From positions 1-51,705 of the forward strand of contig JAKSVV010000001.1 in the NCBI GenBank assembly GCA_024407775.1: a stretch of 51,705 bases of DNA. The letters are read 5' to 3'. The DNA comes from Clostridia bacterium. Lineage in GTDB: Bacteria > Bacillota > Clostridia > Lachnospirales > JAKSVV01. Position numbers and translations under genes: made by a program. This document shows positions 13,184 through 51,705 of the stretch, piece by piece. The notes under the pieces were generated by a model. The model made no database searches, was not told the origin of the DNA, and saw nothing but the letters and a program-made list of their open reading frames with translations. The first letter of the stretch is position 1. Each line of letters starts with the position of its first letter.

Positions 13184-13907
13184 CCATCATTTTTTCTCCG
13201 ATTAGATAAGCACCAATAAGTAAAAATAGACATATAGTTAGAACTATATAACCAGTCACGCTTTCATATATAGGCATCAAAAACTCATTGGCAGTTAATG
13301 ATAAGAAGCCATATATTAATATAGGTATTGCAAGCATAATTCTAAGTTCATATTTTTTCTCATAAAATATTTTTTCTATCTCATACCCGATTTCAATTCG
13401 GTCAGTAATTACTTTGACTGTATCACTAAGAATAGAATTAATATCTCCTGTTGTTTTTTCTGCAATTAGAATTGAATCATAAAATTTATCAATCTCAGGT
13501 ATATCAAATTCTTCTTTAAGAATTTTAATAGCACCAGAAAAATCATTATATGTTATTAAATAGTTTTTACTTTGTTTTAATATATTAATAAATTCATTGC
13601 TGCTAGCTATTTTAATAAACTCATTATATGAATTTATAAATGCTTTAGCTGGTTCATCACCAGTTAAAGAAGAAACTGAAAATAAATTAATAAACTCTTT
13701 AAAATCTATTAAGACTTTTTTTAGTTTTTCATTTTCTTCATCTTTTAATATTTTTTTATACACTATTATGTACGACCAGCTTATAAGAAAGCTTAGAAAT
13801 AAGTTTCTATAAAACAGCATGCATATAGCAAAGAAAATTATATATAAATAAAAGGAGATTTTTATTTTGGTTTTTCTGTCGATAAATTTGTATTTATTAT
13901 TTTGCAA
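13161..13907 (-). CDS. tadB: TadB-like platform protein (T2SS-F family)
   Basis: TM helices flank a soluble helical GspF-like domain. Position directly after cpaF. TTG start overlapping the cpaF stop. Confidence 0.65.
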   Translation of the reverse strand: MQNNKYKFIDRKTKIKISFYLYIIFFAICMLFYRNLFLSFLISWSYIIVYKKILKDEENEKLKKVLIDFKEFINLFSVSSLTGDEPAKAFINSYNEFIKIASSNEFINILKQSKNYLITYNDFSGAIKILKEEFDIPEIDKFYDSILIAEKTTGDINSILSDTVKVITDRIEIGYEIEKIFYEKKYELRIMLAIPILIYGFLSLTANEFLMPIYESVTGYIVLTICLFLLIGAYLIGEKMMGDITNEL

Positions 13908-16001: not shown

Positions 16002-18313
16002 TTCACACCTCGAATTTTAAAATTTATCATTCCAGAATAATATGTTGTTATTATCTTAGAATTTTTAAACTTATATACATTCTTCTTATTGAAGTTTGTA
16101 ATATTAGCTTTGTTGCCTGATACGATTAAATATTTAGGGGAGACAACTTTTACGAATTCATCAGTTGATGACGTATTAGAGCCGTGATGAGCTACCTTCA
16201 TTAGAAAGACATTCCTTTCTATCTTATTACTATCTATAATAATTTCTTCAGCTTCCTTTTCTATGTCTCCCGTAAATAAAAAATCTTTATCATCAATTTT
16301 CATATTTAAAACCACAGAATAGTTATTAGGTTTAAATTTATAATCATCAATATTAGGTGGTGGATAAATACAATCTATATGTACTCTTCCGAGTTCAAAG
16401 TAAGAATTATTATCTATGGCTATTATAGGAATTTTATACTTTACTGCTTTTTCTTTAAGTTCCTCATAATAATTTCCACTTAAAGTTCCTTGGGGGACAA
16501 GTATCTCGCCTATATCTATAAGGCTTATGAGTTCAATAATTCCTTTAATGTGATCTCTATCTGTATGTGTTACAACACAAACATCAAGTTTAGAAAGACC
16601 TAAATAATTCAAGTAGGGAAATACATTATAATTACCCGTGTCTTTCTCATTATCATTTTTGCCACCACCATCAATCAACAGAGACTTATTTTCTTTTTTA
16701 TCAAAGATTAGGATTGAATCTCCATGATCAACATCAATGAAAGTTACATCTATTTCATTTGGTTTATAAAATATTGAAAATAAAAAAATAATAAGAGATA
16801 AAGCATACAATTTTATATACAAAAGAAATCTTCTTTTATCTCTAATAGTATCTCTTTTCTCTTTAATGATCTTATATAAAATGAAATAACTAACATACCA
16901 AACTATAATGGTAAAAAGTGAAAGTTTACCTGATATGATTTTAAAACCATTTAGTTTTGATAAATAAGTTAGTACTTCTTCATAATACATAAGAATAAGT
17001 GAAATAAGTTTTCCTAAAATAATTGCTAAATTAAAATTAATGTATTTTAAAAATATTAAAATAAAACTTGATATGACTAGAGTACTAGTCAGAGGTAAAA
17101 TAAATATATTTGCAATCATGCTTAGACCTTGAAAATTGTAAAAGTTATAAGTAAGTATAGGTGTCATTAACATGAAAACAGATATTGTACTTGCATAATT
17201 TTTAAATATACCTTTTAATCTTAATTTTGCTTTCATAGATAAAATAGCACTAAACGATAATATAAAACTAACGTTAAATAAATTAGCACTATTAATCATT
17301 AATATAATTAAACAAGCAAGTGATAAACCACTCAGTGAATCATACTCTCTATCAAGGAGTAAACTTATCTCACTAAAAATAGTCATAAGTAATGCTCTTA
17401 TAGTAGAAATATTCATACCCGTGAAAATGGTATACAAAAACAAAATTGAAACCAGACATGTGAATTTAATTTTTTTATTCTTGATAAAATAACTAAGTAT
17501 CTTTTTTAAAAATAAAGAAATTATTCCTATGTGCATACCACTAATTGCTAGTATATGAAATACTCCACCATTCTTATAAAGAGTTTTGGTATCACTATCA
17601 AGCAAACTGCTTTCTCCAGTTATCATTGCTTTAATTATTGAACTATATTTTTCACTAAGAAGTGAGTCGTAAATATTACATATTTTATTTCTAAGTTTAG
17701 ATAAATCAGTAACAATAAAAATATAACCAGGACTAACATTAAGCACCTCGCCAGAAAAATTATAATAAATCCGTTGTGCTCTTTTGTATTCTTTCTCATT
17801 ATAGGAGCCTAAATTTTTAACACTATTTATGTTAGTAAGCATTCCTTTTAATTTAATTTTGTATCCAGCATATATTTCATTGCATAAACTTTTATCAATA
17901 TAAACTTCAACGTTCTCATTAACTGATTTTAATTTTACTTTTGCTTTATAATTTTCTTCACGTGTGGTTATCTTAGTTATAACTCCTTCGTATTCACGTT
18001 TATCATACAGGGTTTGGGTAGAATATGGATTAAAATGATGATTCGAAATATAACTCGAGATAAATCCATACGCAAAGAATATTAAGCATAAAATAATTTT
18101 TTTATAATTAATAAAATCTTTAAAGTTTAAAAGTAATATTTTAAAATTTTTAAATCTTACTTTTTTATCTCTGTCAAATTTATTAATAATCAAAATAAAA
18201 AAATCAGTAATGAACAATATAAAAATAAGTAATATAGTTTCCAATAAATTTAATTTTGTCTCAGAATAAATTCCGCAAATTAAAAATATTAAAATTGCAA
18301 TTATTTCTTTCAT
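15995..18313 (-). CDS. comEC: DNA internalization-related competence protein ComEC/Rec2
   Basis: N-terminal OB-like region, a polytopic competence domain, and a C-terminal metallo-beta-lactamase domain (VTFIDVDHGDS, HTDRDH, VAHHGS). Start trimmed to MKEIIAILIF (ATG at 18311-18313, GGTGA RBS). Confidence 0.9.
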   Translation of the reverse strand: MKEIIAILIFLICGIYSETKLNLLETILLIFILFITDFFILIINKFDRDKKVRFKNFKILLLNFKDFINYKKIILCLIFFAYGFISSYISNHHFNPYSTQTLYDKREYEGVITKITTREENYKAKVKLKSVNENVEVYIDKSLCNEIYAGYKIKLKGMLTNINSVKNLGSYNEKEYKRAQRIYYNFSGEVLNVSPGYIFIVTDLSKLRNKICNIYDSLLSEKYSSIIKAMITGESSLLDSDTKTLYKNGGVFHILAISGMHIGIISLFLKKILSYFIKNKKIKFTCLVSILFLYTIFTGMNISTIRALLMTIFSEISLLLDREYDSLSGLSLACLIILMINSANLFNVSFILSFSAILSMKAKLRLKGIFKNYASTISVFMLMTPILTYNFYNFQGLSMIANIFILPLTSTLVISSFILIFLKYINFNLAIILGKLISLILMYYEEVLTYLSKLNGFKIISGKLSLFTIIVWYVSYFILYKIIKEKRDTIRDKRRFLLYIKLYALSLIIFLFSIFYKPNEIDVTFIDVDHGDSILIFDKKENKSLLIDGGGKNDNEKDTGNYNVFPYLNYLGLSKLDVCVVTHTDRDHIKGIIELISLIDIGEILVPQGTLSGNYYEELKEKAVKYKIPIIAIDNNSYFELGRVHIDCIYPPPNIDDYKFKPNNYSVVLNMKIDDKDFLFTGDIEKEAEEIIIDSNKIERNVFLMKVAHHGSNTSSTDEFVKVVSPKYLIVSGNKANITNFNKKNVYKFKNSKIITTYYSGMINFKIRGVKC

Positions 18314-18329
18314 ACATTCACCGGATGTA

Positions 18330-18358
18330 AATATAGAAAAATTATTTTTTAAATTCAA
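18330..18358 (-). promoter_or_regulatory. Sigma-A-type promoter of the comEC-to-comFC operon
   Basis: The minus strand reads TTGAAT, a 17-nt spacer, then TATATT, about 15 nt upstream of the comEC ATG and downstream of the GH18 terminator. Confidence 0.4.
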
Positions 18359-18467
18359 CCATTTCTTCCCCAAAAGTCGATTTAGAAACCCCAAATGTTT
18401 GTTTTTTTAAAATTTTCGACTTAAGGAAGAACTTTTCTTCCTCTAACCCTACCGTAGGGGAATGAAA

Positions 18468-22319: not shown

Positions 22320-23894
22320 TTATCTCTTAAGGTTAACAAGTTCTTCAAGTAATGTATCTGATGTTGTGATAATTCTTGAGTTAGCTTGGAATCCTCTTTG
22401 AGTTGTGATCATTTCTGTGAACTCTGTTGATAAGTCTACGTTAGACATTTCTAGAGTACCAGCGTTTAATGATCCTACACTTGTTGGGTCAACCCCGATA
22501 CCATCGAAGTCACCTGAGTTAAGTGTTGATTGATATAAGTTACCACCAACTTTTTCAAGCCCTGCTGAGTTTGAGAAAGTTGCAAGTGATATTTGTCCTA
22601 AAATTTTAGTTTGTCCATTTGAGTACTTAGCTGAGATGATACCATCTGAACCAATTGAGTATGAACTCATAGTACCAGGTTTGTTACCATCATAAGTACT
22701 ACTTGCAGTTGTTGAACTGTTGTATTGTGTTAAATCATTTAATGATAATGTGATAACATTAATAGTTGCATCACCAACATCACCTGTACCAACATTAGAT
22801 ACAATACCTCTTATTGGTGGTTCTGTTCCTTTACCAAAGTTTAATTTAATACCTGTAATTCCAGCACCAACATTTTTATCTAAGTTTCCTGAAGCATCAA
22901 ATTTGAATACTGCAGGGAAACCAGCAGCTGTATTACCAGCATCACTTAATTTTGAAAGTAATGTTGCTAGTGGTACTTCACCAGTTTCATCAGCTACATC
23001 AGCTTTAGTTAAACCACTTTGTGTTACATAAGCATCAGATGCATATACTCTTTCACCTTCAGCATTTGTTACATCACTAATTCCAAGTGATACCCAGAAT
23101 GGATATGCAACATCTCCAGTTACTCCTGCACCTTTATTTACATTTGCCATTGTAATATCATATGTTTTAACTCCAGTTGGTAAACCTGTTGGGTAACCAT
23201 CAACTGTTAATTTTACATCGTGGTTATCATTATATTTATCAACTGCAGCTTGTGAGTCTATATAATAGAAATTTTGTTTTACTGTATATTCGTTACCTAA
23301 GCTATCGAAGATTGTAGATAGTTGTGTAACACCTGTTGCTTCAGTAGATCCGTCATCAATATTTAAGTTCTTTGCAAAATTAATTTTTGTTGTTTTACTA
23401 GCTGGAACTGAGTAAGTTTCATTTGCAACCATTGCTAATTTTTCTACTGGAGTTTTTGCAATGTTACCATCTTTATCTGCTGTCCATCCACATACATAGT
23501 AACCATTTGATGTTACTAAGTATCCATTAACATCTATTTTAAAAGATCCGTCTCTTGTAAATTTATATCCATTACCATCGTTAACAATGAAGAATCCATC
23601 TCCTTCAATTTTTAAATCTAGTTCGTTATCAGTTCTTTGTGCAGCACCTTCACCCATTAGGATATCGATACTACCAACAGTAGATCCTAAACCGATTTGT
23701 TTAGAGTTTGTACCTCCGACTTCTTCATTACCTGCAGAAGCCCCTGATAATTTTTGTGAGAATACATCAGTAAATGTAACTCTACTTGATTTAAATGCTG
23801 TTGTGTTAACGTTAGCTATATTATTACCGATTACGTCCATCTTTGTTTGGTGAACTGTTAATCCTGAAATCCCTGAATATAATGATCTCATCAT
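22320..23894 (-). CDS. flgE: Flagellar hook protein FlgE
   Basis: N-terminus MRSLYSGISGLTVHQTKMDVIGNNIANVNTTAFK and C-terminus MITTQRGFQANSRIITTSDTLLEELVNL are rod/hook family signatures. Confidence 0.95.
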   Translation of the reverse strand: MMRSLYSGISGLTVHQTKMDVIGNNIANVNTTAFKSSRVTFTDVFSQKLSGASAGNEEVGGTNSKQIGLGSTVGSIDILMGEGAAQRTDNELDLKIEGDGFFIVNDGNGYKFTRDGSFKIDVNGYLVTSNGYYVCGWTADKDGNIAKTPVEKLAMVANETYSVPASKTTKINFAKNLNIDDGSTEATGVTQLSTIFDSLGNEYTVKQNFYYIDSQAAVDKYNDNHDVKLTVDGYPTGLPTGVKTYDITMANVNKGAGVTGDVAYPFWVSLGISDVTNAEGERVYASDAYVTQSGLTKADVADETGEVPLATLLSKLSDAGNTAAGFPAVFKFDASGNLDKNVGAGITGIKLNFGKGTEPPIRGIVSNVGTGDVGDATINVITLSLNDLTQYNSSTTASSTYDGNKPGTMSSYSIGSDGIISAKYSNGQTKILGQISLATFSNSAGLEKVGGNLYQSTLNSGDFDGIGVDPTSVGSLNAGTLEMSNVDLSTEFTEMITTQRGFQANSRIITTSDTLLEELVNLKR

Positions 23895-24008
23895 AGTTTG
23901 TACCTATCCTCCAATTTCTACTTTTTTATTTCTTAATATCACTCAATCTAATTTCAATTTAATTATCAAAATTTATATTTTATAACTTTTACTTTTTATT
24001 TATATTTT

Positions 24009-24773
24009 TTATTCCGTCACATCACTAAGTTCGTTTTCAATATTTTCTGCTTCTTCATTAGTAGCAGTTAATACTTCATATAATTGTTTTACATATTGAA
24101 GTATATCTTCTTCGGCTGGAATCATTTCAGTTACATTTTCAATTTCGCCAAGTGTAACATCACGTTTTTCACCAGTTACAGCATCATATGCTTCAAGATG
24201 AATTTCTCCATCAGTAACATTTACGCTATTGATTAATGCTTTCCATGTGTTTTGATATCCGCTTTCAAAAATTTCTGTTCCTGAAACAATCTTTCCAATT
24301 AATGAGTTTGCATAAGATAATTTTGTATAATCTAAAACTCCATTTGATGTTGTTTCATCATTAACAACTGATTGTACTTTTCCAAGTTCGATGTCTTTAT
24401 CTCCAACAAGTAAATATACTTCGCCAGAAATAACTTTTGTTCCATCAACTTTTCCAATCACGCTGTTACCATCAGCATCAGTTGCACTAATAATCTTACC
24501 AATCATTCCAGTTGCTTCATTCATCTCATTAGCAAATCCTAAGTTTTCCATAATTTCTAGTGTAGTAAATTGTGCCATTTGTGATAAGAATTCTGAGTTG
24601 TCTTGTGGATCAAGTGGATCTTGATATTGCATTTGTGTAACTAATAAGTTTAAGAAAATATCTTTATCAGATGTTCTTGCTTCTTCAGCTTGAACTTGTG
24701 TAGTTGTTTGACCATATTTTTTAATATAATCATCCATAGTCACGTTACCATTAACATTACTTACGCCGCTCAT
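24009..24773 (-). CDS. flgD: Flagellar hook capping/assembly protein FlgD
   Basis: FlgD motif [37 protein letters not shown]. Confidence 0.9.
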
Positions 24774-24802
24774 TATCGGGCCTCCTTAAAAAATTTCTTT
24801 AT

Positions 24803-26422
24803 CTAAGCTATGTAGTTTAATTGACTCTTTGTCATATATAAACCACGTCTTCTTAATTCACTATTATTTATTTCGGCAGTTGTATTAAAAATCTTTATAC
24901 CTTTGCCAAGAATTTTATGAGGATTTTTTCCTTGAGCTATTTTTCTAATTTCATCTAAATTTCTTTCATTATTTTGGTTATTCATATTTTGACCAACACT
25001 AACGCTAAGACCTGTCACTTCAACTCCTCTCTTTTCAAGAGATTCTTTAAGCAAGCTTAGGTTAGATTCAATTATTTCTTTTACCTTTTGATTTTCTGCT
25101 TCAAATTTAGCTTGAACTAAACCATTTTCAGCAACAATCTTTAAGTTAACTTTACCTAAATTTTCAGGATCAAGTTTGATATTCATTTCTTGAACACCTT
25201 CAGAAATATTTAATTCAACATGTTTAACCATTTGTTTTGTAACATTAATTGTTTCAATAAATCTATCAGTAACACTGTTACTCATAAGATTTTCATCTAT
25301 AACATCAGATAAATCTTCTGGAATTATATTTTCATTTGAAACTTTACTAATGTTAAATTCATTCTTTGGTTTTGTTTCAAGTACTCTATCTTGTTTTACT
25401 CCTTTATGATCTTTTTTAATTTCTTTGTGATCAATTTCTTCATCACTATCGATATTGTTGTCTACAACTTTATCAACTTTTTCATCACTAATAGAAGTAT
25501 CTTCATCAAGAGATACTTTTTCATCTATAATAACTATTTCGTTATCTTCTTTTATATCTTTAGTTGTATCAATTATTTCTTCTGAAACTTCTGATACTAC
25601 TTCTTCAGTTTTAACTTCTTTAACATTTTTAACAACATTAACTTCATCAATCATTTCATTGATTACATCTTTTAAAATATTAAAGTTGTTATCATCTTTT
25701 TCTTCTATAGGAGCTTCTACTTCTAAAACATTTTCTTCATTAATAATAGGAAGTTCTTCTAAAGAATTTTCTTCTTCGTTATCCATTGTAAAAATATTTA
25801 CAAGTTTAACTTGTTTATTAACTTCATCTAACGTGAAATCTAAACTAACATCAATTAATTTTTCAAAATCAAAATTTTGATCTTCATTTAATAAATTGAT
25901 ATCAACATTTAAATTATTATCAGATATAAATGTTTCCAAATTAGTTTTTAATAAATCCAAATTATCTAAATTAATTTCAAATGTACCATCTTCATTTTCA
26001 GTAAAATATATTTTCATATCTTCTGGTTTTTCTTGAAGCATTTGAAGTAATGCACCAAGTGCTTCAATAGATGCATCATTTATTTTTTCTTTATCATCAT
26101 CTATATCTTCACTTATTTCATTAATAACATTTGTATCTTCAATTTTATCTTCGATAGTACTTACTACTTTAGTATCATCAGTTTTATCAAGAGCTAAATC
26201 TTTATCAGTAGTTTTATCTATAGTGTCATTTTTTGAAACAACATTTTCATTTTTAATAACATCAACGTTATTAGATTTATTTGATTCATCAATTTTATTT
26301 ATTAAGTTATCAAACATACCACTGAATTCTTTGTTTTGTGCTTTAGAACTCATTAGTTTATTTGTAACATCACTAGCACTATTAGCGCCTTGAGTCATTT
26401 CAAATAATATATTTAAGTCCAT
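24803..26422 (-). CDS. fliK: Flagellar hook-length control protein FliK
   Basis: Acidic low-complexity ruler region plus a C-terminal Flg_hook-like domain (MNIKLDPENLGKVNLKIVAENGLVQAKFEAENQKVKEII). Start trimmed to MDLNILFEM (ATG at 26420-26422 after AAAGGAGGAA). Confidence 0.8.
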   Translation of the reverse strand: MDLNILFEMTQGANSASDVTNKLMSSKAQNKEFSGMFDNLINKIDESNKSNNVDVIKNENVVSKNDTIDKTTDKDLALDKTDDTKVVSTIEDKIEDTNVINEISEDIDDDKEKINDASIEALGALLQMLQEKPEDMKIYFTENEDGTFEINLDNLDLLKTNLETFISDNNLNVDINLLNEDQNFDFEKLIDVSLDFTLDEVNKQVKLVNIFTMDNEEENSLEELPIINEENVLEVEAPIEEKDDNNFNILKDVINEMIDEVNVVKNVKEVKTEEVVSEVSEEIIDTTKDIKEDNEIVIIDEKVSLDEDTSISDEKVDKVVDNNIDSDEEIDHKEIKKDHKGVKQDRVLETKPKNEFNISKVSNENIIPEDLSDVIDENLMSNSVTDRFIETINVTKQMVKHVELNISEGVQEMNIKLDPENLGKVNLKIVAENGLVQAKFEAENQKVKEIIESNLSLLKESLEKRGVEVTGLSVSVGQNMNNQNNERNLDEIRKIAQGKNPHKILGKGIKIFNTTAEINNSELRRRGLYMTKSQLNYIA

Positions 26423-26457
26423 AGATTCCTCCTTTCTCAAAATTTAGTCCTAACTCT

Positions 26458-42351: not shown

Positions 42352-43539
42352 TTATATCTTTCCTTGTAATTTGTAAACGAATGCTAATACTTCTGCTACT
42401 GATTGGTATAATTCTTCTGGTATAGAATCACCAACTTCACATGTTGCATAAAGTGTTCTTGCAAGAGGTTTGTTTTCCACAATTTCCACTTTATTTTCTT
42501 TAGCAATTTCTTTAATACGAAGAGCTAAATAATCTTGTCCTTTAGCAACAACATAAGGTGGTCTTTGATCAACTGCATCTCTATCATATTTAATACCTAC
42601 AGCAAAGTGAGTAGGGTTAGTAATAATAACATCTGCAGTTTTAACATCTTGCATCATACGTGACATAGACATTTGTCTTTGTTTATTACGACGTTGTTGT
42701 TTGATGTTTGGATCCCCTTCTAATTGTTTGTATTCTTCTTTAACTTCTTGTTTACTCATCATTAAGTTTTTCATAAGTTCTCTTCTTTGGAAGAAGTAGT
42801 CGATAACAGCTATAATAGCAAAGAAACCTCCAACTTTTATTCCAAGTGAAATAACAACTTTACCTATATATATCATCGCTTGGTCAGCACTAACATTAAC
42901 AAGGTTAACCATAGCAAGAATTTCATCAACTATACAAAGATATAAAATGTAAGCAATAAGTCCAAACTTTCCAAGTGATTTAAAAAGTTCAAGAAATGCT
43001 TTCTTACTAAAAATTCTTTTCATACCTTCAATAGGATTTAATCTATTAAATTTAGGTTTTAATGCTTTACCTGTTGGTTTCCAACCAACTTGAATAATAT
43101 TAGCAACTATCCCTAAAGCCATGGCTACTCCAAAGATAGGAAGAGCTGTAAATAACATATCTCCAAATGCTCTTGTTACCCATTTACTAATTGCAGATGG
43201 AGTAAATAATGCATCAGGTGATTCTATTAAAACTAAATTTTGATTAATAACTTTAATTAAATTTTTATACATAAAACCTGCTGTCATTTTTAATGCAAAG
43301 AATAATCCAACGATTAATATTGCTGTATTAATTTCAACAGACTTAGCAACTTGTCCTTCTTCTCTAGCTTTTTCTTTTCTATAATCAGAAGGTGCTTCAG
43401 TTTTTTCTCCGCCAGCTCCTTCATTGTCAGCGAAAAATTGTAAATTTAATTTTAATAAATTACTTTTATTTTTTTCATTAAAAAAAGATAGTATGATTTC
43501 ATCATCATTATTATCATAAAAATTTATTACTCTAATCAT
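42352..43539 (-). CDS. flhB: Flagellar export apparatus switch protein FlhB
   Basis: LQFFA...EKTEAPSDYRKEKAREEGQVAKS and the NPTH autocleavage site (VIITNPTHFAV). About 30 extra N-terminal residues. Confidence 0.92.
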   Translation of the reverse strand: MIRVINFYDNNDDEIILSFFNEKNKSNLLKLNLQFFADNEGAGGEKTEAPSDYRKEKAREEGQVAKSVEINTAILIVGLFFALKMTAGFMYKNLIKVINQNLVLIESPDALFTPSAISKWVTRAFGDMLFTALPIFGVAMALGIVANIIQVGWKPTGKALKPKFNRLNPIEGMKRIFSKKAFLELFKSLGKFGLIAYILYLCIVDEILAMVNLVNVSADQAMIYIGKVVISLGIKVGGFFAIIAVIDYFFQRRELMKNLMMSKQEVKEEYKQLEGDPNIKQQRRNKQRQMSMSRMMQDVKTADVIITNPTHFAVGIKYDRDAVDQRPPYVVAKGQDYLALRIKEIAKENKVEIVENKPLARTLYATCEVGDSIPEELYQSVAEVLAFVYKLQGKI

Positions 43540-43560
43540 ACTACCTCCTAAAAAATTTTA

Positions 43561-44346
43561 TCAAGTTTCTATCGCGAATAATTTCATAAACGTTGTAATA
43601 ATATCTACACCCTTATCATAAATAATTGCATAGTTATCTATAATTAAATCTGTTGCAAATATCATAATAAGCAAGAACATTGCAATCTTAAGTGGGAAAC
43701 CTACAACGAATACATTCATTTGTGGTACTGCTCTAACTAATACTCCAAGTCCTACATCAAGTATTAACATTGTTGCAATAATTGGACTTGCAAATTTAAA
43801 TGCTAGTATAAACATATCCCCCATCAATTTTATAATATAGCTTACTGTTGAACCAGTGAATGCAAACTTACCAATAGGTAATAATTCATAGCTATAAAAA
43901 ATTGCTTTTATAAAAGTATGATGCATATTTGTGCAAAGAAAAATTGCAATTAATGCATAATAATATAAGTTAGCAGTTATAGCAAGTTGCATTGAGTTTG
44001 ATGGATCATAAACTGTTGCCATAGTAAGTCCTGCTTGTGAGTCAATTAATGTTCCTGCAAAAATAATTGCATTAAATATTATAGTTGCAGCAAATCCTAT
44101 CATTGCTCCAATCATAGCTTCAGTAACACATATGCCTCCAAAAGCAAGTGGATTATCAAACATGCTTACGCTAACACTTAAATTATCGTTAGCAAAAAAT
44201 ATCATACATGCAAGACAAAAACTTAATGCACCTTTAACATATGTATTAATATATCTACCATTAAAAAATGGGGCTGTTACAAAAAATCCAAGTAATCTTA
44301 TCATTAATATTATAACAAGCTCCACCATATCTAGCGTAATAGACAT
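43561..44346 (-). CDS. fliR: Flagellar export apparatus protein FliR
   Basis: Polytopic 261-aa protein in fliP-fliQ-fliR-flhB order, with FliR-like sequence. Confidence 0.9.
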   Translation of the reverse strand: MSITLDMVELVIILMIRLLGFFVTAPFFNGRYINTYVKGALSFCLACMIFFANDNLSVSVSMFDNPLAFGGICVTEAMIGAMIGFAATIIFNAIIFAGTLIDSQAGLTMATVYDPSNSMQLAITANLYYYALIAIFLCTNMHHTFIKAIFYSYELLPIGKFAFTGSTVSYIIKLMGDMFILAFKFASPIIATMLILDVGLGVLVRAVPQMNVFVVGFPLKIAMFLLIMIFATDLIIDNYAIIYDKGVDIITTFMKLFAIET

Positions 44347-44397
44347 GTTTCCTCCATTAATTTTTTATATAAAAATAAGCATACTAAAATAAGTATG

Positions 44398-44667
44398 CTA
44401 TCCTAAATATTGTCCCATATTTGTGAACAAATTATTTGTAAACTGTATAAGAATGTTAAGAATCCAAGTACCGAAAACAAGCAAAGACGCGAAAATAGCA
44501 ACTATCTTCGGAACGAACGCTAAGGTTTGTTCTTGAATAGAAGTTACAGCCTGAAATATACTGACTATAACACCGACAACTAATCCGCAAATTAGCATCG
44601 GTGCAGATGCCTCAAGTATTGTTATCAAAGCATCAGTTACAACTTTAGTAACGATTTCGCTTGTCAT
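44398..44667 (-). CDS. fliQ: Flagellar export apparatus protein FliQ
   Basis: 89-aa, two-TM protein with the pattern ...GLVVGVIVSIFQAVTSIQEQTLAFVPKI. Confidence 0.92.
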   Translation of the reverse strand: MTSEIVTKVVTDALITILEASAPMLICGLVVGVIVSIFQAVTSIQEQTLAFVPKIVAIFASLLVFGTWILNILIQFTNNLFTNMGQYLG

Positions 44668-44797
44668 TTTCCTTTTCCCCTTTTATTATACCTACTTATT
44701 TCTTAATCTTATATTTTTGTTATCTTATATTTTTATTTATAATTCTTTTTTTATTTATATTAATTTTAATAATTTTCAAATTTAAAAATTAGTTACG

Positions 44798-45559
44798 TCA
44801 GGACACCATCCTGAAACTAGAAACTAATTCACTACATATTAAATGCCATCCATCAACCATAATGAATAATAAAATTTTAAATGGTAAAGATATCGAAGCT
44901 GGTGGTAACATCATCATACCCATAGCCATAAGTACTGACGCAACAACCATATCGATAACGATAAATGGTATGTAAATTAAGAATCCAATCATGAATCCTC
45001 TTTTTAGTTCCCCAATAATAAAACTTGGGATAACAACTGTAAGTGGAAGATCAATATATTCTTCAACTGGTTCAGCGTTACTCATATTAGCAAATAAAGC
45101 TAAATCTTCTTCATAAACTTGATTTAGCATAAATTCTTTTAATGGTTTTGTTGCATTATCAAATGCTACTTCTTCTGTAATAGCTCCCGCCTTATATGGA
45201 TCCCATGCTGTAGTCTTAATACTTGTAAATATAGGCATCATTAAAAACAATGTCATAAATAAAGCAAGACCAATTAATGCTTGGTTTGGTGGTGTTTGTT
45301 GTGTACCAAGTGCAGCTCTTAAGAAATAAAATACAACGACAATTCTCGTAAAAGATGTCATCATAATTATTATAGATGGTGCAAGTGATAACACAGTTAT
45401 TATAAGTAATATTTGAATACTACTTGTAACTTCTAGTGGACTTGTTGCTCCATCAATATTAATGCTTACACTAGGAAGTGCTGAGGCATAAACCTTAGAA
45501 CTTAAAGAAAATAGCATCATAAATAAAAGTAATAAACCTTTTATTTTCTTCCCTTTCAT
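44798..45559 (-). CDS. fliP: Flagellar export apparatus protein FliP
   Basis: Signal peptide plus the FliP motifs MTSFTRIVVVFYFLRAALGTQQTPPNQ and GFLIYIPFIVIDMVVASVLMAMGMMMLPP. Confidence 0.95.
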   Translation of the reverse strand: MKGKKIKGLLLLFMMLFSLSSKVYASALPSVSINIDGATSPLEVTSSIQILLIITVLSLAPSIIIMMTSFTRIVVVFYFLRAALGTQQTPPNQALIGLALFMTLFLMMPIFTSIKTTAWDPYKAGAITEEVAFDNATKPLKEFMLNQVYEEDLALFANMSNAEPVEEYIDLPLTVVIPSFIIGELKRGFMIGFLIYIPFIVIDMVVASVLMAMGMMMLPPASISLPFKILLFIMVDGWHLICSELVSSFRMVS

Positions 45560-45579
45560 TACCTAATATCTCCCTACAA

Positions 45580-46080
45580 TTATCTTCTGTGTGTTTTAAA
45601 TAATAAAGTTTTAATATCTATTTCATCATCATCTTTATTAGAATCAGAATTATTTATAATAACTTCATTACTATCGCATTCATTTTTAATAGATGTACTT
45701 TCAATATTTTCATTCTTATTATTTTCATTATCATCATGCATGAAAGAACGTGTCATATTATTAAAAACTTCTTCGAAAGATACTACTCTCTTATCAAGTT
45801 CTTCTTCTGATACGTTAAGTTCATGTGAATAAAATGTATCTAATTTAACAACATTATCTTTAGTAAGTGCTAGTAATAAAATTTTATTTCCTACTCTTAC
45901 AAGTTGTAATGTCTTTTGTGGTCCAAGTTGCATTCCTTCTAATAAACGCATATTTTTATTTTTGTATTTTTTAAAACTTGCACTAGCAACAATTTTAGTT
46001 GTTACATATGCAAGTCCTAAAATTACAGCAAAAGCGAATATTAGAGATAGAAATGTCATAACTCCATCTAACCATCCCAT
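45580..46080 (-). CDS. fliO: Flagellar biosynthesis protein FliO/FliZ
   Basis: Single N-terminal TM followed by ...MRLLEGMQLGPQKTLQLVRVGNKILLLALTKDNV. Located between cheY and fliP, as in the Bacillus fla/che operon. Confidence 0.7.
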   Translation of the reverse strand: MGWLDGVMTFLSLIFAFAVILGLAYVTTKIVASASFKKYKNKNMRLLEGMQLGPQKTLQLVRVGNKILLLALTKDNVVKLDTFYSHELNVSEEELDKRVVSFEEVFNNMTRSFMHDDNENNKNENIESTSIKNECDSNEVIINNSDSNKDDDEIDIKTLLFKTHRR

Positions 46081-46174
46081 AAAAACCTCTTCATTAATTT
46101 ATTTACCCAAACAATTAACTACTTTTACTAATTATTTTTATAATAATAAATTATTTTCTACCTATTATATAGCA

Positions 46175-46534
46175 TTAAGCTAATGCTTTTTGAACAGCTT
46201 CAATAACTCTATCTGGTTGGAAAGGCTTAACTATAAAGTCTTTTGCTCCAGCTTGAATTGATTCAATAACCATTGCTTGTTGTCCCATAGCACTACACAT
46301 AATGATATTAGCACTTGGTGCAATTTTCTTAATTTCTTTAACAGCTTGAATACCATCCATTTCTGGCATTGTGATATCCATGATTACTAAATCTGGTGTT
46401 TCTTCTTTGTATTTTTCTACTGCTACTAATCCATTTTCTGCTTCTACGATTGGATCATATCCTGCCTTTGTTAAAATATCCTTAAGCATCATTCTCATAA
46501 AAGCTGCATCGTCTACTAATAAAATCTTTGACAT
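46175..46534 (-). CDS. cheY: Chemotaxis response regulator CheY
   Basis: 119-aa stand-alone receiver: LLVDDAAFMR, DITMPEMDG, AKDFIVKPF. Confidence 0.9.
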   Translation of the reverse strand: MSKILLVDDAAFMRMMLKDILTKAGYDPIVEAENGLVAVEKYKEETPDLVIMDITMPEMDGIQAVKEIKKIAPSANIIMCSAMGQQAMVIESIQAGAKDFIVKPFQPDRVIEAVQKALA

Positions 46535-46543
46535 TTCTTCCTC

Positions 46544-47692
46544 CTAAATTCTCTTCTTTACATCTATTATTTCAGTTATACGAATACCGAAGTTTTCATC
46601 AATAACTACTACTTCGCCCTTAGCGATAAATTTATTATTTATTAAAATATCAATAGGTTCACCGGCCATCTTGTTAAGTTCAATAACAACCCCTGGTGAA
46701 AACTCTAATATTTCCTTAATTGATTTATTAGTTCTACCAAGTTCAACGACTACTTCAAGTGGTACGTCTTGGATTAAACTAATTTGTTCTTTAACGCCTT
46801 CAACTCTTTCAGCAACTAATGTTTCAAATTGAACTGAAGATGCATTACTAACTGGAGCAGGTGCTGGTGCACTTACTTGTACTGGAGCAGCTGCTTGAGC
46901 AGGTGCTGCTTCAGGCATTGGTGCTGCGGCTGGTGCCGGAGCTGGTGCTGCTTCTGGTGCTGGGACTTCTTCTTTCTTTTCTTCCCCTCCTCCATTTGCT
47001 CCTGTTAATTTATCTATAAGTTGTTTAGCAACAGGTCTAGGTAAGATTTGAACCATCTTACTTGCTAAGATATCTCCAACTGTTAAATCAAATTCAACAG
47101 TAACGTAATCTTCACTTTCAATATCTACACCTGCAACAACTTTGCTTTGTGAAATATCTATCTTTTCAACTGAAGGTGGATTAATATCAACTGTACTACT
47201 AAATACTTGTGACATAGATGTACATGATGTACCAACCATTTGGTTCATAGCTTCGGCAATCGCACTTAAACTCATGTCGTCAAGTTCGCTACCTGCTTCA
47301 ACGTTAGGTCCTTGTCCCATCATCATACTAGCTACAATTTTAACATCTTGTTCTTTCATAAGTAACATGAAAGATCCATCAAGTCCTGTTTTATACTTGA
47401 TATCAATTGCTACATATTTATCAGCTCCGCCTAACAATTCTTTTAAAGTACTGCCTTCTTTAACAGTAGGAGTAGTAATATTAACTTTTTCGTTAAGTAA
47501 TGATGATAATGTTGTAGCAGCGCTACCCATACTTATGTTTCCAACTTCCCCTAAAACGTCTCTATCGGAATCTGTAAGGCTTGCGCCACTGGCTGCACCT
47601 GTTGTTCCACCATCGCTAGATGCTCCAGCGTCTCCGCCACCAGCATTTGCAAATAGTGCGTTAATTTCATCTTGTGATATTGTATCAGCCAT
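46544..47692 (-). CDS. fliY: Flagellar motor switch phosphatase FliY (CheC-like domain plus FliN domain)
   Basis: N-terminal EINALF peptide, CheC-like repeats (LGEVGNISMGSAATTLS / AIAEAMNQMVG), an Ala/Pro linker and a C-terminal FliN/SpoA domain. Start trimmed to MADTISQ (47690-92). Overlaps the fliM stop. Confidence 0.9.
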   Translation of the reverse strand: MADTISQDEINALFANAGGGDAGASSDGGTTGAASGASLTDSDRDVLGEVGNISMGSAATTLSSLLNEKVNITTPTVKEGSTLKELLGGADKYVAIDIKYKTGLDGSFMLLMKEQDVKIVASMMMGQGPNVEAGSELDDMSLSAIAEAMNQMVGTSCTSMSQVFSSTVDINPPSVEKIDISQSKVVAGVDIESEDYVTVEFDLTVGDILASKMVQILPRPVAKQLIDKLTGANGGGEEKKEEVPAPEAAPAPAPAAAPMPEAAPAQAAAPVQVSAPAPAPVSNASSVQFETLVAERVEGVKEQISLIQDVPLEVVVELGRTNKSIKEILEFSPGVVIELNKMAGEPIDILINNKFIAKGEVVVIDENFGIRITEIIDVKKRI

Positions 47693-48707
47693 TTGCTTCC
47701 TCCTTCCCAACACTTTCTTCTTCGCCTTCTTTTGGTGGTTCCTTTATAATCTTGGTTATGAGAACTGAATTTCTATGTCTACTCATACCAGGTTTGGCAT
47801 CAAATTTATAGATGTCACCAACCAAAATCTTTAATGCAGAGTTTACGTCTGTATCAAGTTTGATAACATCTCCAACTTGGAGATCAACAAACTCATCAAC
47901 TTTTATAACACTTGTTCCTAAAATAGCTTTTATTGGAACAATAAGTTTTGTAAGTTTTTCTTCTAGTCTATCTTTATAGTTATCTTGATGTTCTTCACGC
48001 TTAACACTGAACCATTGTTTTGTAGAAAGTTTATGCATAACAGGTTCAATGACCATGTGAGGAATACATATATTAATCATGTCACTAAGTTCACCGAATT
48101 GAATATTTAAAGTAATAAGCGCAACCATTTCGTTAGGTTCGATTACTTCGGCGAACTGAACATTTGTTTCTAACTTTTCAAGTCTTGGGTGAATTTGATG
48201 TACGTTTTCCCAAGGTTCTCTCATAAGTTCTGCCATCTTTGATACTACTCTTTGCATAAGAGCAATTTCTATTTCTGTGAATTCTCTTTCTTCTTTGATT
48301 TCGATTCCTTCACCACCAAGTACTCTATCTATAATTGCATAAGCAAGTTTAGCACTCATCTTTGCCATGATAGAACCTTTAAGTGGTGCAAAGTTAATCA
48401 TTGTGAATACTAATGGGTTTGATAAACCTCCACTGAATTCTTTATATGTAAGAGCTTCAACACCGTCAACTGTAATGTGTGTAGGTATTCTTAAATATCC
48501 AGAAAAGTAGCTAGATAATACTCTCGAATAGTTGTCATATATAATTTGTAATGTTTTTAAATGTTCTCTTGAAAATTTTGATGGTCTTGTAAAATCATAG
48601 TCACGTACTTTCTTTTCAGCTGATACCATTTCGGTAGTATCAACTTCACCGGTATTTAAAGCGGATAGTAACGCGTCAATCTCTGATTGAGAAAGAACAT
48701 CAGCCAT
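47685..48707 (-). CDS. fliM: Flagellar motor switch protein FliM
   Basis: N-terminal CheY-P binding peptide LSQSEIDALL, with the FliM middle domain and a C-terminal SpoA-like domain. Confidence 0.93.
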   Translation of the reverse strand: MADVLSQSEIDALLSALNTGEVDTTEMVSAEKKVRDYDFTRPSKFSREHLKTLQIIYDNYSRVLSSYFSGYLRIPTHITVDGVEALTYKEFSGGLSNPLVFTMINFAPLKGSIMAKMSAKLAYAIIDRVLGGEGIEIKEEREFTEIEIALMQRVVSKMAELMREPWENVHQIHPRLEKLETNVQFAEVIEPNEMVALITLNIQFGELSDMINICIPHMVIEPVMHKLSTKQWFSVKREEHQDNYKDRLEEKLTKLIVPIKAILGTSVIKVDEFVDLQVGDVIKLDTDVNSALKILVGDIYKFDAKPGMSRHRNSVLITKIIKEPPKEGEEESVGKEEANG

Positions 48708-48745
48708 TAGTCTTCACCCCCTTTGCCAACAATATATATCAAATA

Positions 48746-49324
48746 CTAAGCTTTAATCTTATCACTAAAGTACACATCACATACTATTGTTGTTCCAAAT
48801 GTTTGATTTAATGTGTCTAAAATTTTTGTTTTAACAGTATATTCTTTATCAGCACCATCAAAGTATGACATGTCTGTTGATGTAACAATTTGTTCAACTT
48901 TTTCTTTGATGATTTCTTTTTTAGCATTTAAAATTTCAATGTCTTTCTTATAAGCTTTATCTTTTGTGTTAATACCTAGGTTAACTGTCATAGTTAAGTA
49001 TCTATCAGTTGTACCATCTTTAACATTGAAAGCTGCACCATTAACTACTTCATAAAGTTCAATATCAGCATATGATACTTGAGTTTTTTCAGAAGTTTGA
49101 ACTAACTTTCCTTCTTCACTTAATCCATTATTAATGTTTTCAACTTTTTGCATTGTTGTATATTGAAGAAATACCATAGCAGCCATAACCATTAAAATTA
49201 AGAATTGTAATCCTGTAGAAACTCCGTTTCCACCACCAGATTTTTCTTTAGATTTTTTAGCTTTCTTAGCTTCTTTGTCTTGACCTTCGTCTTTTACTTC
49301 TTCATTCTTGTTTTCTTCATCCAT
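48746..49324 (-). CDS. fliL: Flagellar basal-body-associated protein FliL
   Basis: Charged N-terminus, a single TM, and a FliL-type C-domain (RYLTMTVNLGIN...KEKVEQIV). Located between motB and fliM. Confidence 0.85.
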   Translation of the reverse strand: MDEENKNEEVKDEGQDKEAKKAKKSKEKSGGGNGVSTGLQFLILMVMAAMVFLQYTTMQKVENINNGLSEEGKLVQTSEKTQVSYADIELYEVVNGAAFNVKDGTTDRYLTMTVNLGINTKDKAYKKDIEILNAKKEIIKEKVEQIVTSTDMSYFDGADKEYTVKTKILDTLNQTFGTTIVCDVYFSDKIKA

Positions 49325-49338
49325 CTTTCCATTCTCCT

Positions 49339-51342
49339 TTATTCAGCATATTTTGAAATTATCTTAATTTCTACACGTCTGTTTTTTGCTCTTCCGTCTT
49401 CAGTATCATTACTTGCAACTGGATAGAATTCTCCATAACCTGTTGCACTAATGAATGTTGGTTTAATTCCCATATCAACATAATAACTTAAAACTGCAAG
49501 AGCTCTATCTGATGATAAGTACCAGTTGTTTGGATACTTTGAAGTATGAATTGGTACATTATCAGTATGTCCTTCAACGACGATTTGATTTCCGTCTTTT
49601 TCAAAATCTTTTAATGCATCGTATAGGCCTTTTAGTAATGTTCTAGCTGATGGTTTTAAATCAGCTTTTCCTGTATCGAATAATACTCCATCACCAAAAG
49701 TGATCTTAACAAATCCATCGCCTGCTGAGATTTGAACTTTGTCTCCATATTCTTCAGCAATTGATAATTCATCATTTTTGTTACCTTGTTTTGCATCATC
49801 TGTCTTGTTGCCTTTTTTGTCATCATCTGTTTTATTACCAGACTTTTCTTCTTCGGTTTTATTACCCATAAATTCTTGTGCTGTTTTATTTCCTTGGAAT
49901 AAATCTTCAAGTTTATCAGCTCCTAAGAATTCACTAGGTGTTTGATTACCGATTTCTTGTGCTTCTGTTTTATTACCAGATAATTTATCAACTGTTTTAT
50001 TACCAAGTAATTCTTCAATTGTTTGGTTACCTGATAATTCATCAAGTGTTTTGTTTCCGATTAGTTCTTCGATTGTCTTACCACCTAGTAAATCTTCAGG
50101 TGTCATACCACCAACTAATTCTTCAACAGTTTTACCACCAAGAAGTTCTTCCATAAGTTTTTGACCTGATAGGTCATCAAGTGTTTTACCACCGATTAGT
50201 TCTTCTAAAGTTTTATTTCCAACTAGATCATCTAGTGTTAAGTTACCAAGAAGTTCTGCAAGAGCTTCACTCTTAAGTGCTTCTTCTAAGTTCTTTTCAC
50301 CAAGTAATTCATCTAGTGTTTTGTTTCCATCAAGATCATCCATAGTAATATTACCTATAAGTTCATCAAGTGTCTTACCACCATCAAGAGCTTCAAGTAA
50401 TTTTTCTAAAGTTTCATCAGCAATTTCTTTTCCGTTATTGCCTTGATCTTTATCTTGTCCTTTATTACCATCATCTTTGCCTTGGTTACCTTTGTCATTT
50501 TGTTTTCCGTCATTTCCTTGATCTGCTTTTTGACCATTATTGCCTTGGTCTTTATCTTGTCCTTTGTTACCTTGGTTTTGATCTTTTCCGTTATTTCCTT
50601 GGTCAGATTGTTGACCATTGTTTCCTTGATTTTGATCTTGACCATTATTACCATGATCATTTTGTTTTCCGTTAGAACCTTGTTCTTGTTCTTTTGTTTG
50701 TCCGCTATCACCATTTTGTGTTGATTCAAGAAGTTTTTCTAACATATCACTTCCAAGTAATTCTTCAAGAGTTTGTCCACCAACAAGTTCTTGAATAGAC
50801 ATTTCTCCAAGTAATTCTTCAAGTGATTTTCCTTCGGCTGTAAGTTCGCCTAAGTTTCCTAGAGCTTCAGCAATATCTGCAAGCTCAGCAAGTTCTTTTA
50901 ATTGTTCTTCACTTAACATTTCTTCAAGAAGTGCTTCAGTGATTTTATCTTCTGTACTCTTTTCTTTTCCTTCACCTGATAATGCTTTCTCAAGTGTTTC
51001 AGTCATTTCGTTTACTTGTGCTTCCATAGCAGCACTTAATGCTCCATTTTTTACACCAATAAGTTGATCTGAGAACATTGCATCATATGCTGGAAGTGGT
51101 AAGATACCGCTACCCATAAGTTTACCATTATCGATTAATGCTTCTCCTCCGCCAAGTACACCAGTTGATCCTGTGTAACTTCTCATAGAGACCGCAATTT
51201 GTTTCATTTTTTCGGTATTGGTGTCACTCATGGCATAAAGCATGATGAAGAATGTAAGAAGTAATGTAACCATGTCCCCGTATGTACTCATCCACGCAGG
51301 AGAGCCAGGAGCTGGTGCATCTTCTTTCTTTTTGATTGCCAT
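49339..51342 (-). CDS. motB: Flagellar stator protein MotB, greatly expanded (667 aa) by a repeat-rich linker
   Basis: N-terminal WMSTYGDMVTLLLTFFIMLYAMS (TM helix with the conserved Asp) and a C-terminal OmpA-like peptidoglycan-binding domain (VVEGHTDNVP...SSDRALAV...NRRVEIKI). About 390 residues of repeats lie between them. Confidence 0.85.
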   Translation of the reverse strand: MAIKKKEDAPAPGSPAWMSTYGDMVTLLLTFFIMLYAMSDTNTEKMKQIAVSMRSYTGSTGVLGGGEALIDNGKLMGSGILPLPAYDAMFSDQLIGVKNGALSAAMEAQVNEMTETLEKALSGEGKEKSTEDKITEALLEEMLSEEQLKELAELADIAEALGNLGELTAEGKSLEELLGEMSIQELVGGQTLEELLGSDMLEKLLESTQNGDSGQTKEQEQGSNGKQNDHGNNGQDQNQGNNGQQSDQGNNGKDQNQGNKGQDKDQGNNGQKADQGNDGKQNDKGNQGKDDGNKGQDKDQGNNGKEIADETLEKLLEALDGGKTLDELIGNITMDDLDGNKTLDELLGEKNLEEALKSEALAELLGNLTLDDLVGNKTLEELIGGKTLDDLSGQKLMEELLGGKTVEELVGGMTPEDLLGGKTIEELIGNKTLDELSGNQTIEELLGNKTVDKLSGNKTEAQEIGNQTPSEFLGADKLEDLFQGNKTAQEFMGNKTEEEKSGNKTDDDKKGNKTDDAKQGNKNDELSIAEEYGDKVQISAGDGFVKITFGDGVLFDTGKADLKPSARTLLKGLYDALKDFEKDGNQIVVEGHTDNVPIHTSKYPNNWYLSSDRALAVLSYYVDMGIKPTFISATGYGEFYPVASNDTEDGRAKNRRVEIKIISKYAE
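49768..50940 (-). repeat. In-frame 27-nt (9-residue) tandem repeats of two families inside motB
   Basis: About 20 units of G-[NG]-K-T-x-[ED]-E-L-x flank about 10 units of G-N-N-G-[QK]-D-Q-N-Q. Several frames are stop-free here, which produces multiple shadow ORFs in the track. Confidence 0.85.
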
Positions 51343-51394
51343 GAAATCACCTCCTACCTTTTCATAATTTTATAGTATAACTAAATTTAATCTA

Positions 51395-51705
51395 TTATTC
51401 TTCAGTCTTTGTTTCTTGTTTTTCTGCTTTTCTTAATGCTGGTGATAAGAATGCTTTTAATTTTTCTTCAATGATTCTTGGGTTTTCACCAGCTAGGATT
51501 GATAATAAACCTTCAACCATAATTTGTTTCATTAAAATTTCTTGGCTACTTCTAACCTTTAGTTTTGATACTGTAGGTGATGCAACGAAGTTAGCTAGGA
51601 TAGAACCATAGAATGTTGTAACTAACGCAACGGACATTGATGGTCCAAGGGCATCTGGGTCATCCATGTGTTGTAAAAGAATGATAAGTCCAAGAAGTGT
51701 ACCAA
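51395..51705 (-). CDS. motA: Flagellar stator protein MotA, N-terminus cut by the window edge
   Basis: MotA/TolQ/ExbB C-terminal channel region ...LGPSMSVALVTTFYGSILANFVASP..., directly upstream of motB. Confidence 0.85.
   Translation of the reverse strand, partial: GTLLGLIILLQHMDDPDALGPSMSVALVTTFYGSILANFVASPTVSKLKVRSSQEILMKQIMVEGLLSILAGENPRIIEEKLKAFLSPALRKAEKQETKTEE

Follow-up and report, generated by a model that had tools for sequence, protein, structure and literature searches.

The 51,705-nucleotide window analyzed here, the whole contig JAKSVV010000001.1 of a metagenome-assembled genome (MAG) of a Clostridia bacterium (Lachnospirales; assembly GCA_024407775.1), encodes on its minus strand a flagellar stator protein, MotB (49339-51342 in the list of open reading frames; 667 amino acids plus stop), whose linker between the plug and the peptidoglycan-binding domain is expanded to about 430 residues by tandem nonapeptides. 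On balance, and with slightly better than even confidence, this appears to be a genuine MotB with a long, acidic, semi-flexible tether that extends the reach of its wall anchor and that originated by amplification of 27-nucleotide units in two layers. What is new is the linker; the stator gene is otherwise ordinary.

Judged by all of the testable defining features of its sequence, the 667-residue protein is a flagellar stator B subunit of the MotB family. Residues 1-58 (51169-51342, minus strand) comprise a short cytoplasmic N-terminus, a transmembrane helix with Asp23 (YGDMVTLLL) and the plug helix; Pfam matches MotB_plug (PF13677) to residues 4-55 (E = 1.9e-19, 69.4 bits versus a cut-off of 24), and the conserved ion-binding aspartate (YGD23MVTLLLTFFIML) falls, in an alignment with nine relatives, in their invariant [YF][GS]D motif. 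Residues 59-95 (51058-51168, minus strand) are the plug-proximal part (GVL..G..L...G.L.GSG) common to normal-length MotB proteins, as aligned with those of Lachnospiraceae and Vallitalea. Residues 526-667 (49339-49767, minus strand, including the stop codon) form the OmpA-like peptidoglycan-binding domain and the helix that precedes it; Pfam matches OmpA (PF00691) to residues 554-655 (E = 6.5e-22, 78.2 bits versus a cut-off of 27.2), and the peptidoglycan-binding motifs are conserved in the alignment with relatives. The nearest sequences in the PDB are the MotB chains of MotA5B2 stators (6ysf, 8ucs and 6ysl), followed by PomB and MotS, all of which match residues ~499-666 (E = 1e-18 to 1e-35). 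NCBIfam ranks models of MotD, MotB and MotS first, all of them under their curated cut-offs (MotD 159 bits versus 283, MotB 149 bits versus 301), a ranking consistent with MotB; divergence or interruption of the protein accounts for the low scores, which concern its subtype name (MotB, MotD or MotS), not its superfamily membership.

The genomic context is that of a flagellar operon. A strong AGGAGG ribosome-binding site (51350-51355, minus strand), read from the sequence, lies 7 nucleotides 5' of the motB start codon, and is preceded by the 3' end of motA (51395-51705, minus strand, Pfam MotA_ExbB), which is cut by the end of the contig. Directly 3' of motB is fliL (48746-49324, minus strand), followed by fliM, fliY, cheY, fliO, fliP, fliQ, fliR and flhB down to position 42352, all on the minus strand and all assigned by Pfam. 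Related loci carry the same flagellar gene order, and a complete motA gene of 263 codons adjoins the same motB in three of them (L084, L086 and L090). The two Pfam domains, the motA, fliL and fliM neighbors and the MotB matches in the PDB uphold the identification as a flagellar MotB that had been made from the open reading frame in an earlier note on this DNA, and a role in driving the motor together with MotA is predicted from gene identity.

At 2.5 times normal size, this MotB is far longer than its relatives, as had been supposed. Among the 80 best relatives in a set of one genome per bacterial species, which does not include the species of the window, MotB has 237-319 residues (Lachnospiraceae, Vallitalea and others), with the exception of one 121-residue stretch; the best 120 of 3342 homologs of the terminal domains have 237-315 residues and are all at most 47% identical, the named genera among the best of them being Defluviitalea, Epulopiscium and Cellulosilyticum. 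Only ordinary MotB proteins (240-320 residues, as in the species-representative scan) were among the matches listed from metagenome contigs, so that no further repeat-bearing MotB was found in the species-representative genomes or among those metagenome-contig matches. A phmmer search of 1.84 billion representative proteins with residues 307-525 as the query gave 261 matches, of which inspection recognized only three as relatives of MotB: P0001, the ortholog in a sister species (634 residues, 77% identical), P0002, a distant ortholog (531 residues, 47% identical), and P0045, a fragment. These and the species of the window are the only sources of a repeat-bearing MotB that were found. The genes of P0001 and P0002 are each located directly after motA, and fliL follows the gene of P0002; a 537-residue protein (P0171) that was considered as a length variant of P0002 is merely the result of another start call. 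Querying with full-length MotB was swamped by low-complexity words and returned 13 matches, and a query without the linker performed better but gave MotB proteins of normal length only. No description of a MotB with a tandem-repeat linker was found in the literature. The trait does not extend beyond a small clade of uncultured bacteria.

The remaining phmmer matches were rejected as kin of the linker, having only the 9-residue period in common with it; they include RTX toxins, proteins of ~250 residues with 'GNSTVxxMW' repeats, and eukaryotic repeat proteins. The 'GNSTVxxMW' proteins are bacterial (P0027, P0033, P0034, P0041 and ~20 more) and consist of an N-terminal domain (MC.F.S.I..KDG...) followed by the 9-residue repeats; they have no Pfam match, and their pattern G-N-x-T-h-x-x-h-h (h, hydrophobic) is like that of the MotB unit, to which they are otherwise apparently unrelated.

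Alignment places the lineage-specific insert at residues ~95 to ~525 of MotB, where relatives have 30-80 mostly acidic residues. Four segments, all on the minus strand, can be distinguished. The insert starts with an acidic, helix-prone segment (residues 96-214, 50701-51057, net charge -21) that is absent from relatives and that has, toward its C-terminal end, about five degenerate amphipathic units (residues 163-207) recognized by identity at a lag of nine residues. Next is a low-complexity block of asparagine, glutamine, glycine, aspartate and lysine (the N/Q block, residues 215-306, 50425-50700) with ~10 units resembling GNNGQDQNQ and zero hydrophobic residues. The amphipathic core (residues 307-482, 49897-50424, net charge -27), delimited by a unit table, codon usage and a position profile, consists of units of the form G-[NG]-K-T-h-[ED]-[ED]-L-h. 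It is followed by a K/D-rich tail (residues 483-525, 49768-49896, from the unit table), the units of which (GNKTAQEFM, GNKTEEEKS, GNKTDDDKK, GNKTDDAKQ and GNKND..) have lost the hydrophobic positions. Within the core, 18 units (residues 321-482) are in perfect register, after which there is a one-residue slip at Q483. In the position profile of these 18 units, Gly1, Lys3 and Thr4, hydrophobic residues at positions 5, 8 and 9 and acidic residues at positions 6 and 7 are conserved, with threonine at position 4 in 14 units and glutamate (8 units) or aspartate (7 units) at position 6; leucine, isoleucine, valine, methionine and phenylalanine make up 31% of core residues.

The period is evident in both DNA and protein. 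Tandem Repeats Finder reports 27-nucleotide periods with super-periods of 54 and 81 nucleotides over 49778-50832, including 10.2 copies at 50426-50695, and a DNA repeat search with a 135-nucleotide reference finds 13 copies at 27-nucleotide spacing. Identity at a lag of nine residues, compared with 2000 shuffles, is 0.45 for residues 307-525 (0.10 ± 0.02 shuffled, maximum 0.17) and 0.48 for the N/Q block (0.17 ± 0.04 shuffled, maximum 0.34), and is weaker for residues 135-214 (0.27 versus 0.13 ± 0.04 shuffled); no other open reading frame of the window has a 9-residue periodicity of this kind. These tests agree with the earlier note, which had described the linker (49768-50940, equivalent to residues 135-525) as built of two families of 9-residue, 27-nucleotide repeats and had put ~10 GNNGQDQNQ-like units at 50425-50700. 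Its figure of ~20 units for the first family is an undercount, since the register table gives ~28 (about five degenerate, 18 in register, and five K/D-rich at residues 484-528), and the run of 16 that it called strictly consecutive contains one 10-residue unit, at the slip.

Repeats in a contig of this kind raise the question of a metagenome assembly artefact, either a collapse or a chimera, all the more as the window is a whole MAG contig that ends inside motA. Independent copies of the locus were found in other assemblies via their exact FliL and FliM proteins. Three other sequencing runs (L086, L090 and L091) yielded a 667-codon motB that differs from that of the window by 42-45 nucleotides and 10-11 amino acids without any insertion or deletion, and two partial copies (L087 and L092) match it as well; a fourth run (SRR25429249, L084, 3441-5369) yielded a MotB of 642 residues. 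The sister species has the same architecture unit by unit. The repeat units are 60-74% identical in DNA over 80-135 nucleotides, and because they are so divergent, short-read assemblers would not collapse or confuse them. The chance that the repeat block is artefactual is accordingly negligible, and, within the limits of short-read data, an artefact is refuted.

Comparison with the orthologs separates an old, fixed part of the linker from a young, variable part. Over the 176 codons of the core (residues 307-482), the sister-species protein P0001 aligns with 0 gaps at 84% identity (dN/dS 0.24). Orthologous units of the two proteins are on average 0.84 identical and non-orthologous units 0.44, the ortholog being the best match for 17 of the 18 units, and the same 17-18 units are retained in P0002, where positions 5, 8 and 9 are again hydrophobic and positions 6 and 7 acidic. 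For reference, residues 1-58 are 97% identical to P0001 (dN/dS 0.07) and the OmpA domain region 85% (dN/dS 0.15). No insertion or deletion in the core was found between strains or in comparison with the sister species. Its units have diverged to a mean identity of 43% in amino acids and ~58% in nucleotides, and the leucine at position 8 is encoded by TTA in seven units, CTT in four and CTA in four. The amphipathic core is thus old, with unit number and order fixed under purifying selection: the low dN/dS, the lack of indels over 176 codons and the one-to-one orthology of the units are those of a structure that selection has fixed, and not of a tract prone to slippage.

The N/Q block, by the same comparison, is young, fast-evolving and variable in length. 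It is 46% identical to its counterpart in P0001 (dN/dS 0.63), with 29 gapped positions, is shorter there, and is absent from P0002. In the L084 strain, a 75-nucleotide segment (residues 279-303, 50428-50502, minus strand) has been deleted; the segment is flanked by a 12-nucleotide direct repeat, AAT[G/A]ACGGAAAA. Such a strain-level deletion between direct repeats is a feature of recent slippage, of which the core, with its ~58% identity and scrambled codons, shows none. The K/D-rich tail has one unit more in P0001 and lacks most units in P0002. Two proposals of the earlier note therefore apply to parts of the linker only. Expansion of repeats at the DNA level accounts for the history of the amphipathic family but does not describe its present behavior, with units so divergent and leucine codons so mixed, and variation in length between strains is real for the N/Q block, which has the 75-nucleotide indel and is shorter in the sister species, and for the K/D tail, with its extra unit there, but not for the core.

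The nonapeptide may be read as a turn made by glycine and asparagine, a threonine N-cap with a T-x-x-E capping box, an amphipathic helix of 1.5 turns, and the next glycine as C-cap. This reading follows from established helix-capping rules and agrees with AlphaFold2 (AF2) models, which place a helix of 4-5 residues in every unit, a coil in the N/Q block and helices in residues 96-214 also, all at low confidence: the mean predicted local distance difference test (pLDDT) score is 38.9 for the full protein, modeled from a three-sequence alignment, and 41.3 for a 171-residue core fragment, with a predicted template modeling (pTM) score of 0.18. The hydropathy spectrum of the core has sharp peaks at 4.5- and 3-residue periods. 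An EF-hand-like unit was dropped on inspection, the would-be loop ligands 1, 3 and 5 being leucine, glutamate and isoleucine.

No Pfam family matched the linker above noise (E <= 10), and no relative was found in the PDB beyond a marginal match to an RTX beta-roll; the linker consists of repeats, as P0001 and P0002 also show, and not of a known folded domain, in keeping with the original description. The marginal match draws attention to the RTX family, which resembles the MotB nonapeptides in several respects: the period is identical, residues agree in register at Gly1, Gly or Asn at position 2 (often Gly2 in RTX), acidic position 6 and Leu8, both kinds of repeat are acidic and extracytoplasmic, HMMER aligns the linker with the beta-roll of alkaline protease (1akl/1kap, E = 0.012), and many RTX proteins were among the matches in the 1.84-billion-protein search. 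The MotB units could on these grounds be a divergent Ca2+-binding beta-roll (GGxGxDxUx) that is disordered without Ca2+ and stiffens outside the cell. We consider this very unlikely. Position 4 is threonine instead of the turn glycine of RTX; position 6 is glutamate as often as aspartate, where RTX has a strict aspartate; hydrophobic residues occupy positions 5 and 9, and those at 5, 8 and 9 are spaced i, i+3, i+4 as in a helix, consistent with the helix propensity of the unit; the hemolysin-type calcium-binding family was not found by the Pfam scan at E <= 10; and AF2, at low confidence, gives a helix, not a strand, in each unit. The RTX matches are artefacts of shared periodicity: eukaryotic 9-mer repeats with no relation to the linker obtain higher scores. 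Judged by its residue pattern, the MotB nonapeptide is not counted as a member of the RTX family.

The same unit accounts for an array of N-x-T motifs, of which the earlier note had counted more than ten, cautioning that they were not evidence of glycosylation. Residues 307-525 contain 13 N-x-[ST] motifs, compared with 1.8 ± 1.2 in shuffles of the same composition, and all 13 stem from the G-N-K-T with which a unit begins. This excess, together with the extracytoplasmic location of the linker according to MotB topology, is what would be expected if the motifs were N-glycosylation sequons and the linker a glycosylated stalk. The pattern of conservation makes that most improbable and bears out the caution. 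Asparagine at position 2 is found in 9/18 units here, 8/18 in P0001 and only 2/18 in P0002, and is thus not conserved among the three orthologs, while the hydrophobic and acidic positions are; it is freely replaced by glycine (5/18 units here). Among strains of the same species, sequons have been lost (T459Q and T496N) and one has been gained (G421N with T423S). No oligosaccharyltransferase gene is present in the window, and the threonine of the motif is well suited to be a helix N-cap (T-x-x-E). From the sequence, the N-x-T motifs are best regarded as incidental to the G-N-K-T turn with its helix cap, and not as glycosylation sites.

The sequence features suggest the following account of the linker, which is the one favored above. 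From the usual 30-80 residues, it has grown to ~430 by tandem amplification of 27-nucleotide units in two layers: an old layer of ~28 amphipathic nonapeptides, of which the number and order are now fixed by purifying selection, and a young layer, comprising the hydrophobic-free N/Q block (~10 units) and the K/D tail, which still gains and loses units. Both chains of the MotB dimer would then carry a strongly acidic, semi-flexible tether, which would let the OmpA-like anchor bind the wall tens of nanometers from the proton channel, as compared with ~5 nm, and the variable N/Q block would be an adjustable disordered spacer. A random-coil estimate for 430 residues gives an end-to-end distance of ~18 nm and a contour length of ~155 nm, versus ~4.6 nm and 16 nm for a linker of 45 residues. 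A long tether is plausible because plasticity of the MotB linker and tolerance of large insertions after the plug have both been published: the linker extends and contracts, which matters for activation and mechanosensing (PMC5647336), and E. coli stators still work when a whole fluorescent protein (GFP or iLOV) follows the plug (PMC12434310). The N/Q block and K/D tail are far on the disordered side of a charge-hydropathy plot. The extension of reach is a function that these features would predict. That the linker may adapt the stator to a thick or unusual envelope, as the earlier note proposed, is likewise plausible.

Several points weigh against a flexible tether. By our own estimate, an anchor that bears torque is ill served by a long, soft tether: at ~10 pN the tether would stretch far, so that the stator unit would slide along the rotor until the tether was taut, with backlash on reversal. 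Closely related families manage with short linkers. The core is at the charge-hydropathy boundary (H = 0.460 versus 0.468 at the boundary), the AF2 models are too poor to be read beyond local helix propensity and establish neither 'flexible' nor 'folded', and the strict conservation of unit number is no less compatible with a defined structure than with a floppy tether.

The mechanical difficulty of a soft tether and the strict conservation of unit number keep alive a second account, in which the amphipathic array is folded into a regular rod or solenoid of undescribed fold, possibly from both chains of the dimer, and acts as a rigid strut of defined length, only the N/Q block being disordered. 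One-to-one units with zero indels over 176 codons are unlike ordinary disordered linkers and unlike the neighboring N/Q block; three of the nine positions (5, 8 and 9) are conserved as hydrophobic even in the 47%-identical P0002; the fraction of large hydrophobic residues in the core (31%) and the sharp hydropathy peaks at 4.5 and 3 residues are also consistent with folding, and a stiff strut would remove the compliance problem. Against a rod are the net charge of -27 in 176 residues with a borderline hydropathy, the lack of any Pfam or PDB relative, and the failure of AF2 to find a confident tertiary structure (pLDDT 39 and 41, pTM 0.18), which is weak evidence, given a very shallow alignment of three sequences. 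We consider a folded strut a minority possibility. A more elaborate form of it, in which 18-23 nonapeptides, probably of both chains together, arrange their capped 1.5-turn helices into an undescribed rod or superhelix that serves as a fixed-length ruler to a wall layer tens of nanometers away, with the N/Q block for strain-specific fine adjustment, is rather unlikely.

A similarly doubtful account is that of a low-complexity insert with essentially no function, which drifted into an AT-rich genome and persists because the MotB linker accepts large insertions. The genome, at ~27% GC, favors tracts rich in asparagine, lysine, isoleucine and aspartate, the trait is limited to a small uncultured clade, the E. 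coli stator functions with GFP or iLOV after the plug (PMC12434310), and the evolution of the N/Q block is close to neutral (dN/dS 0.63), with indels among strains. The core, in contrast, has a dN/dS of 0.24, is as conserved as the OmpA domain (84% versus 85% identity) without an indel, and retains its unit number and hydrophobic pattern as far as the 47%-identical ortholog. Junk sequence would not be expected to be conserved in this way, and neutral expansion is unlikely for the core but may still apply to the N/Q block on its own.

Apart from its linker, the 667-residue protein resembles canonical MotB proteins of Firmicutes, such as those of Clostridium sporogenes (6ysf, 251 residues) and Bacillus subtilis (6ysl, 261 residues), which have the same transmembrane helix with its aspartate, plug and C-terminal OmpA-like domain and are likewise encoded directly after motA in a flagellar operon. 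Their linkers have ~30-80 residues versus ~430 here, and neither nonapeptide family is found in any relative of normal length. The nearest functional analogs are domain II of TolA and the proline-rich region of TonB, which are repeat-built, periplasm-spanning segments of the partners of TolQR and ExbBD. In each case, a long, repeat-rich, charged extracytoplasmic span leads from an ion-driven motor of the MotAB type to a distant layer of the envelope. In TolA and TonB, however, the span belongs to a separate third protein and leads to the outer membrane of a diderm, and its repeats are of different chemistry (an alanine/lysine/glutamate helix in TolA, Glu-Pro and Lys-Pro in TonB), whereas here it is within the B subunit of a presumed monoderm. 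TolQR and ExbBD are homologous 5:2 motors (PMC12204202).

Small-angle X-ray scattering shows that the MotB linker of Helicobacter pylori (residues ~65-125), which also joins the plug to the peptidoglycan-binding domain, switches between compact and extended states, and its plasticity has been proposed to govern how far the protein reaches toward the wall and to contribute to mechanosensitivity (PMC5647336). That linker has ~60 residues without repeats and packs against either the plug or the core, and the periplasmic part as a whole measures 5-11.5 nm (PMC5647336); the linker described here is repetitive and seven times longer. The engineered E. coli MotB proteins that carry GFP or iLOV after the plug have working stators with an insertion at the same site, but their inserts are artificial, globular and not selected for a role (PMC12434310).

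Current models of the stator assume a short linker between plug and peptidoglycan-binding domain that reaches the wall by an extension of ~5 nm, and invoke linker plasticity for load sensing. A natural 430-residue tether with a conserved core and a strain-variable block would be a ready-made test of how much compliance and reach can be tolerated in a torque-bearing anchor, of how deep in a Gram-positive wall a stator may be anchored, and of whether linker length tunes stator dynamics, within the limits of an uncultured organism, a narrow clade and a function deduced from sequence. The nonapeptide G-N-K-T-L-E-E-L-I appears to be a compact, idealized turn-cap-helix module without a counterpart in Pfam or the PDB, and may be of interest for the study and design of repeat proteins. 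If the rod or ruler should prove correct, it would be a natural counterpart of envelope rulers of the Lpp, TolA or TonB type, built into a flagellar stator.

Other features of the flagellar genes and their surroundings may be noted. The 263-residue MotA encoded next to this motB (L090, 1700-2491) has its best NCBIfam scores with the sodium-type MotP and PomA models, not with MotA, all below the cut-offs, and mecA is upstream of motA in L084 and L090. FliY (46544-47713, minus strand; CheC and FliN domains) has a low-complexity linker of its own, rich in alanine and proline (residues ~245-290, PAPEAAPAPAPAAAPMPEAAPAQAAAPVQVSAPAPAPV), between the CheC-like and FliN domains. The flagellar genes of the window are split: fliK, flgD and flgE (22320-26440, minus strand) are located ~16 kb from the motAB-fliL-fliM-fliY-cheY-fliOPQR-flhB block (42352-51705, minus strand), with unrelated genes between them, such as those for an NMN transporter, NadR-like and NrtR-like proteins, MgtC, a LytTR regulator, DUF1846 and PAP2. 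The flhB gene is not followed by flhA, in place of which there are genes for a HIT protein and a MurG-like GT28 glycosyltransferase, and fliW is found at 4332-4784.

A cluster resembling those of Tad or type IV pili (8167-15042, minus strand) encodes a T2SSE ATPase, two T2SSF-like membrane proteins (one with an atrophied Ig domain), DUF5702 and an FHA/DUF6382 protein, and includes an open reading frame (9273-10085) of which the C-terminus matches the nuclease domain of CDI toxin EC869-like proteins; it is followed by comEC (15995-18394). The GC content of the window ranges from 22 to 35% (mean ~27%) and is lowest (22-25%) over the pilus-like cluster at 8-14 kb, and the GC skew tracks gene orientation. 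The product of another gene, ribosomal protein L1 (607-1326), is at most 74% identical to its nearest named relatives (MAGs of Clostridiales and Ruminococcaceae) and is itself normal, but its homologs in related metagenome and MAG assemblies (P0292-P0294 and P0302; 300-364 residues) have an internal duplication of ~70-130 residues, which most likely reflects strain-chimeric assembly.

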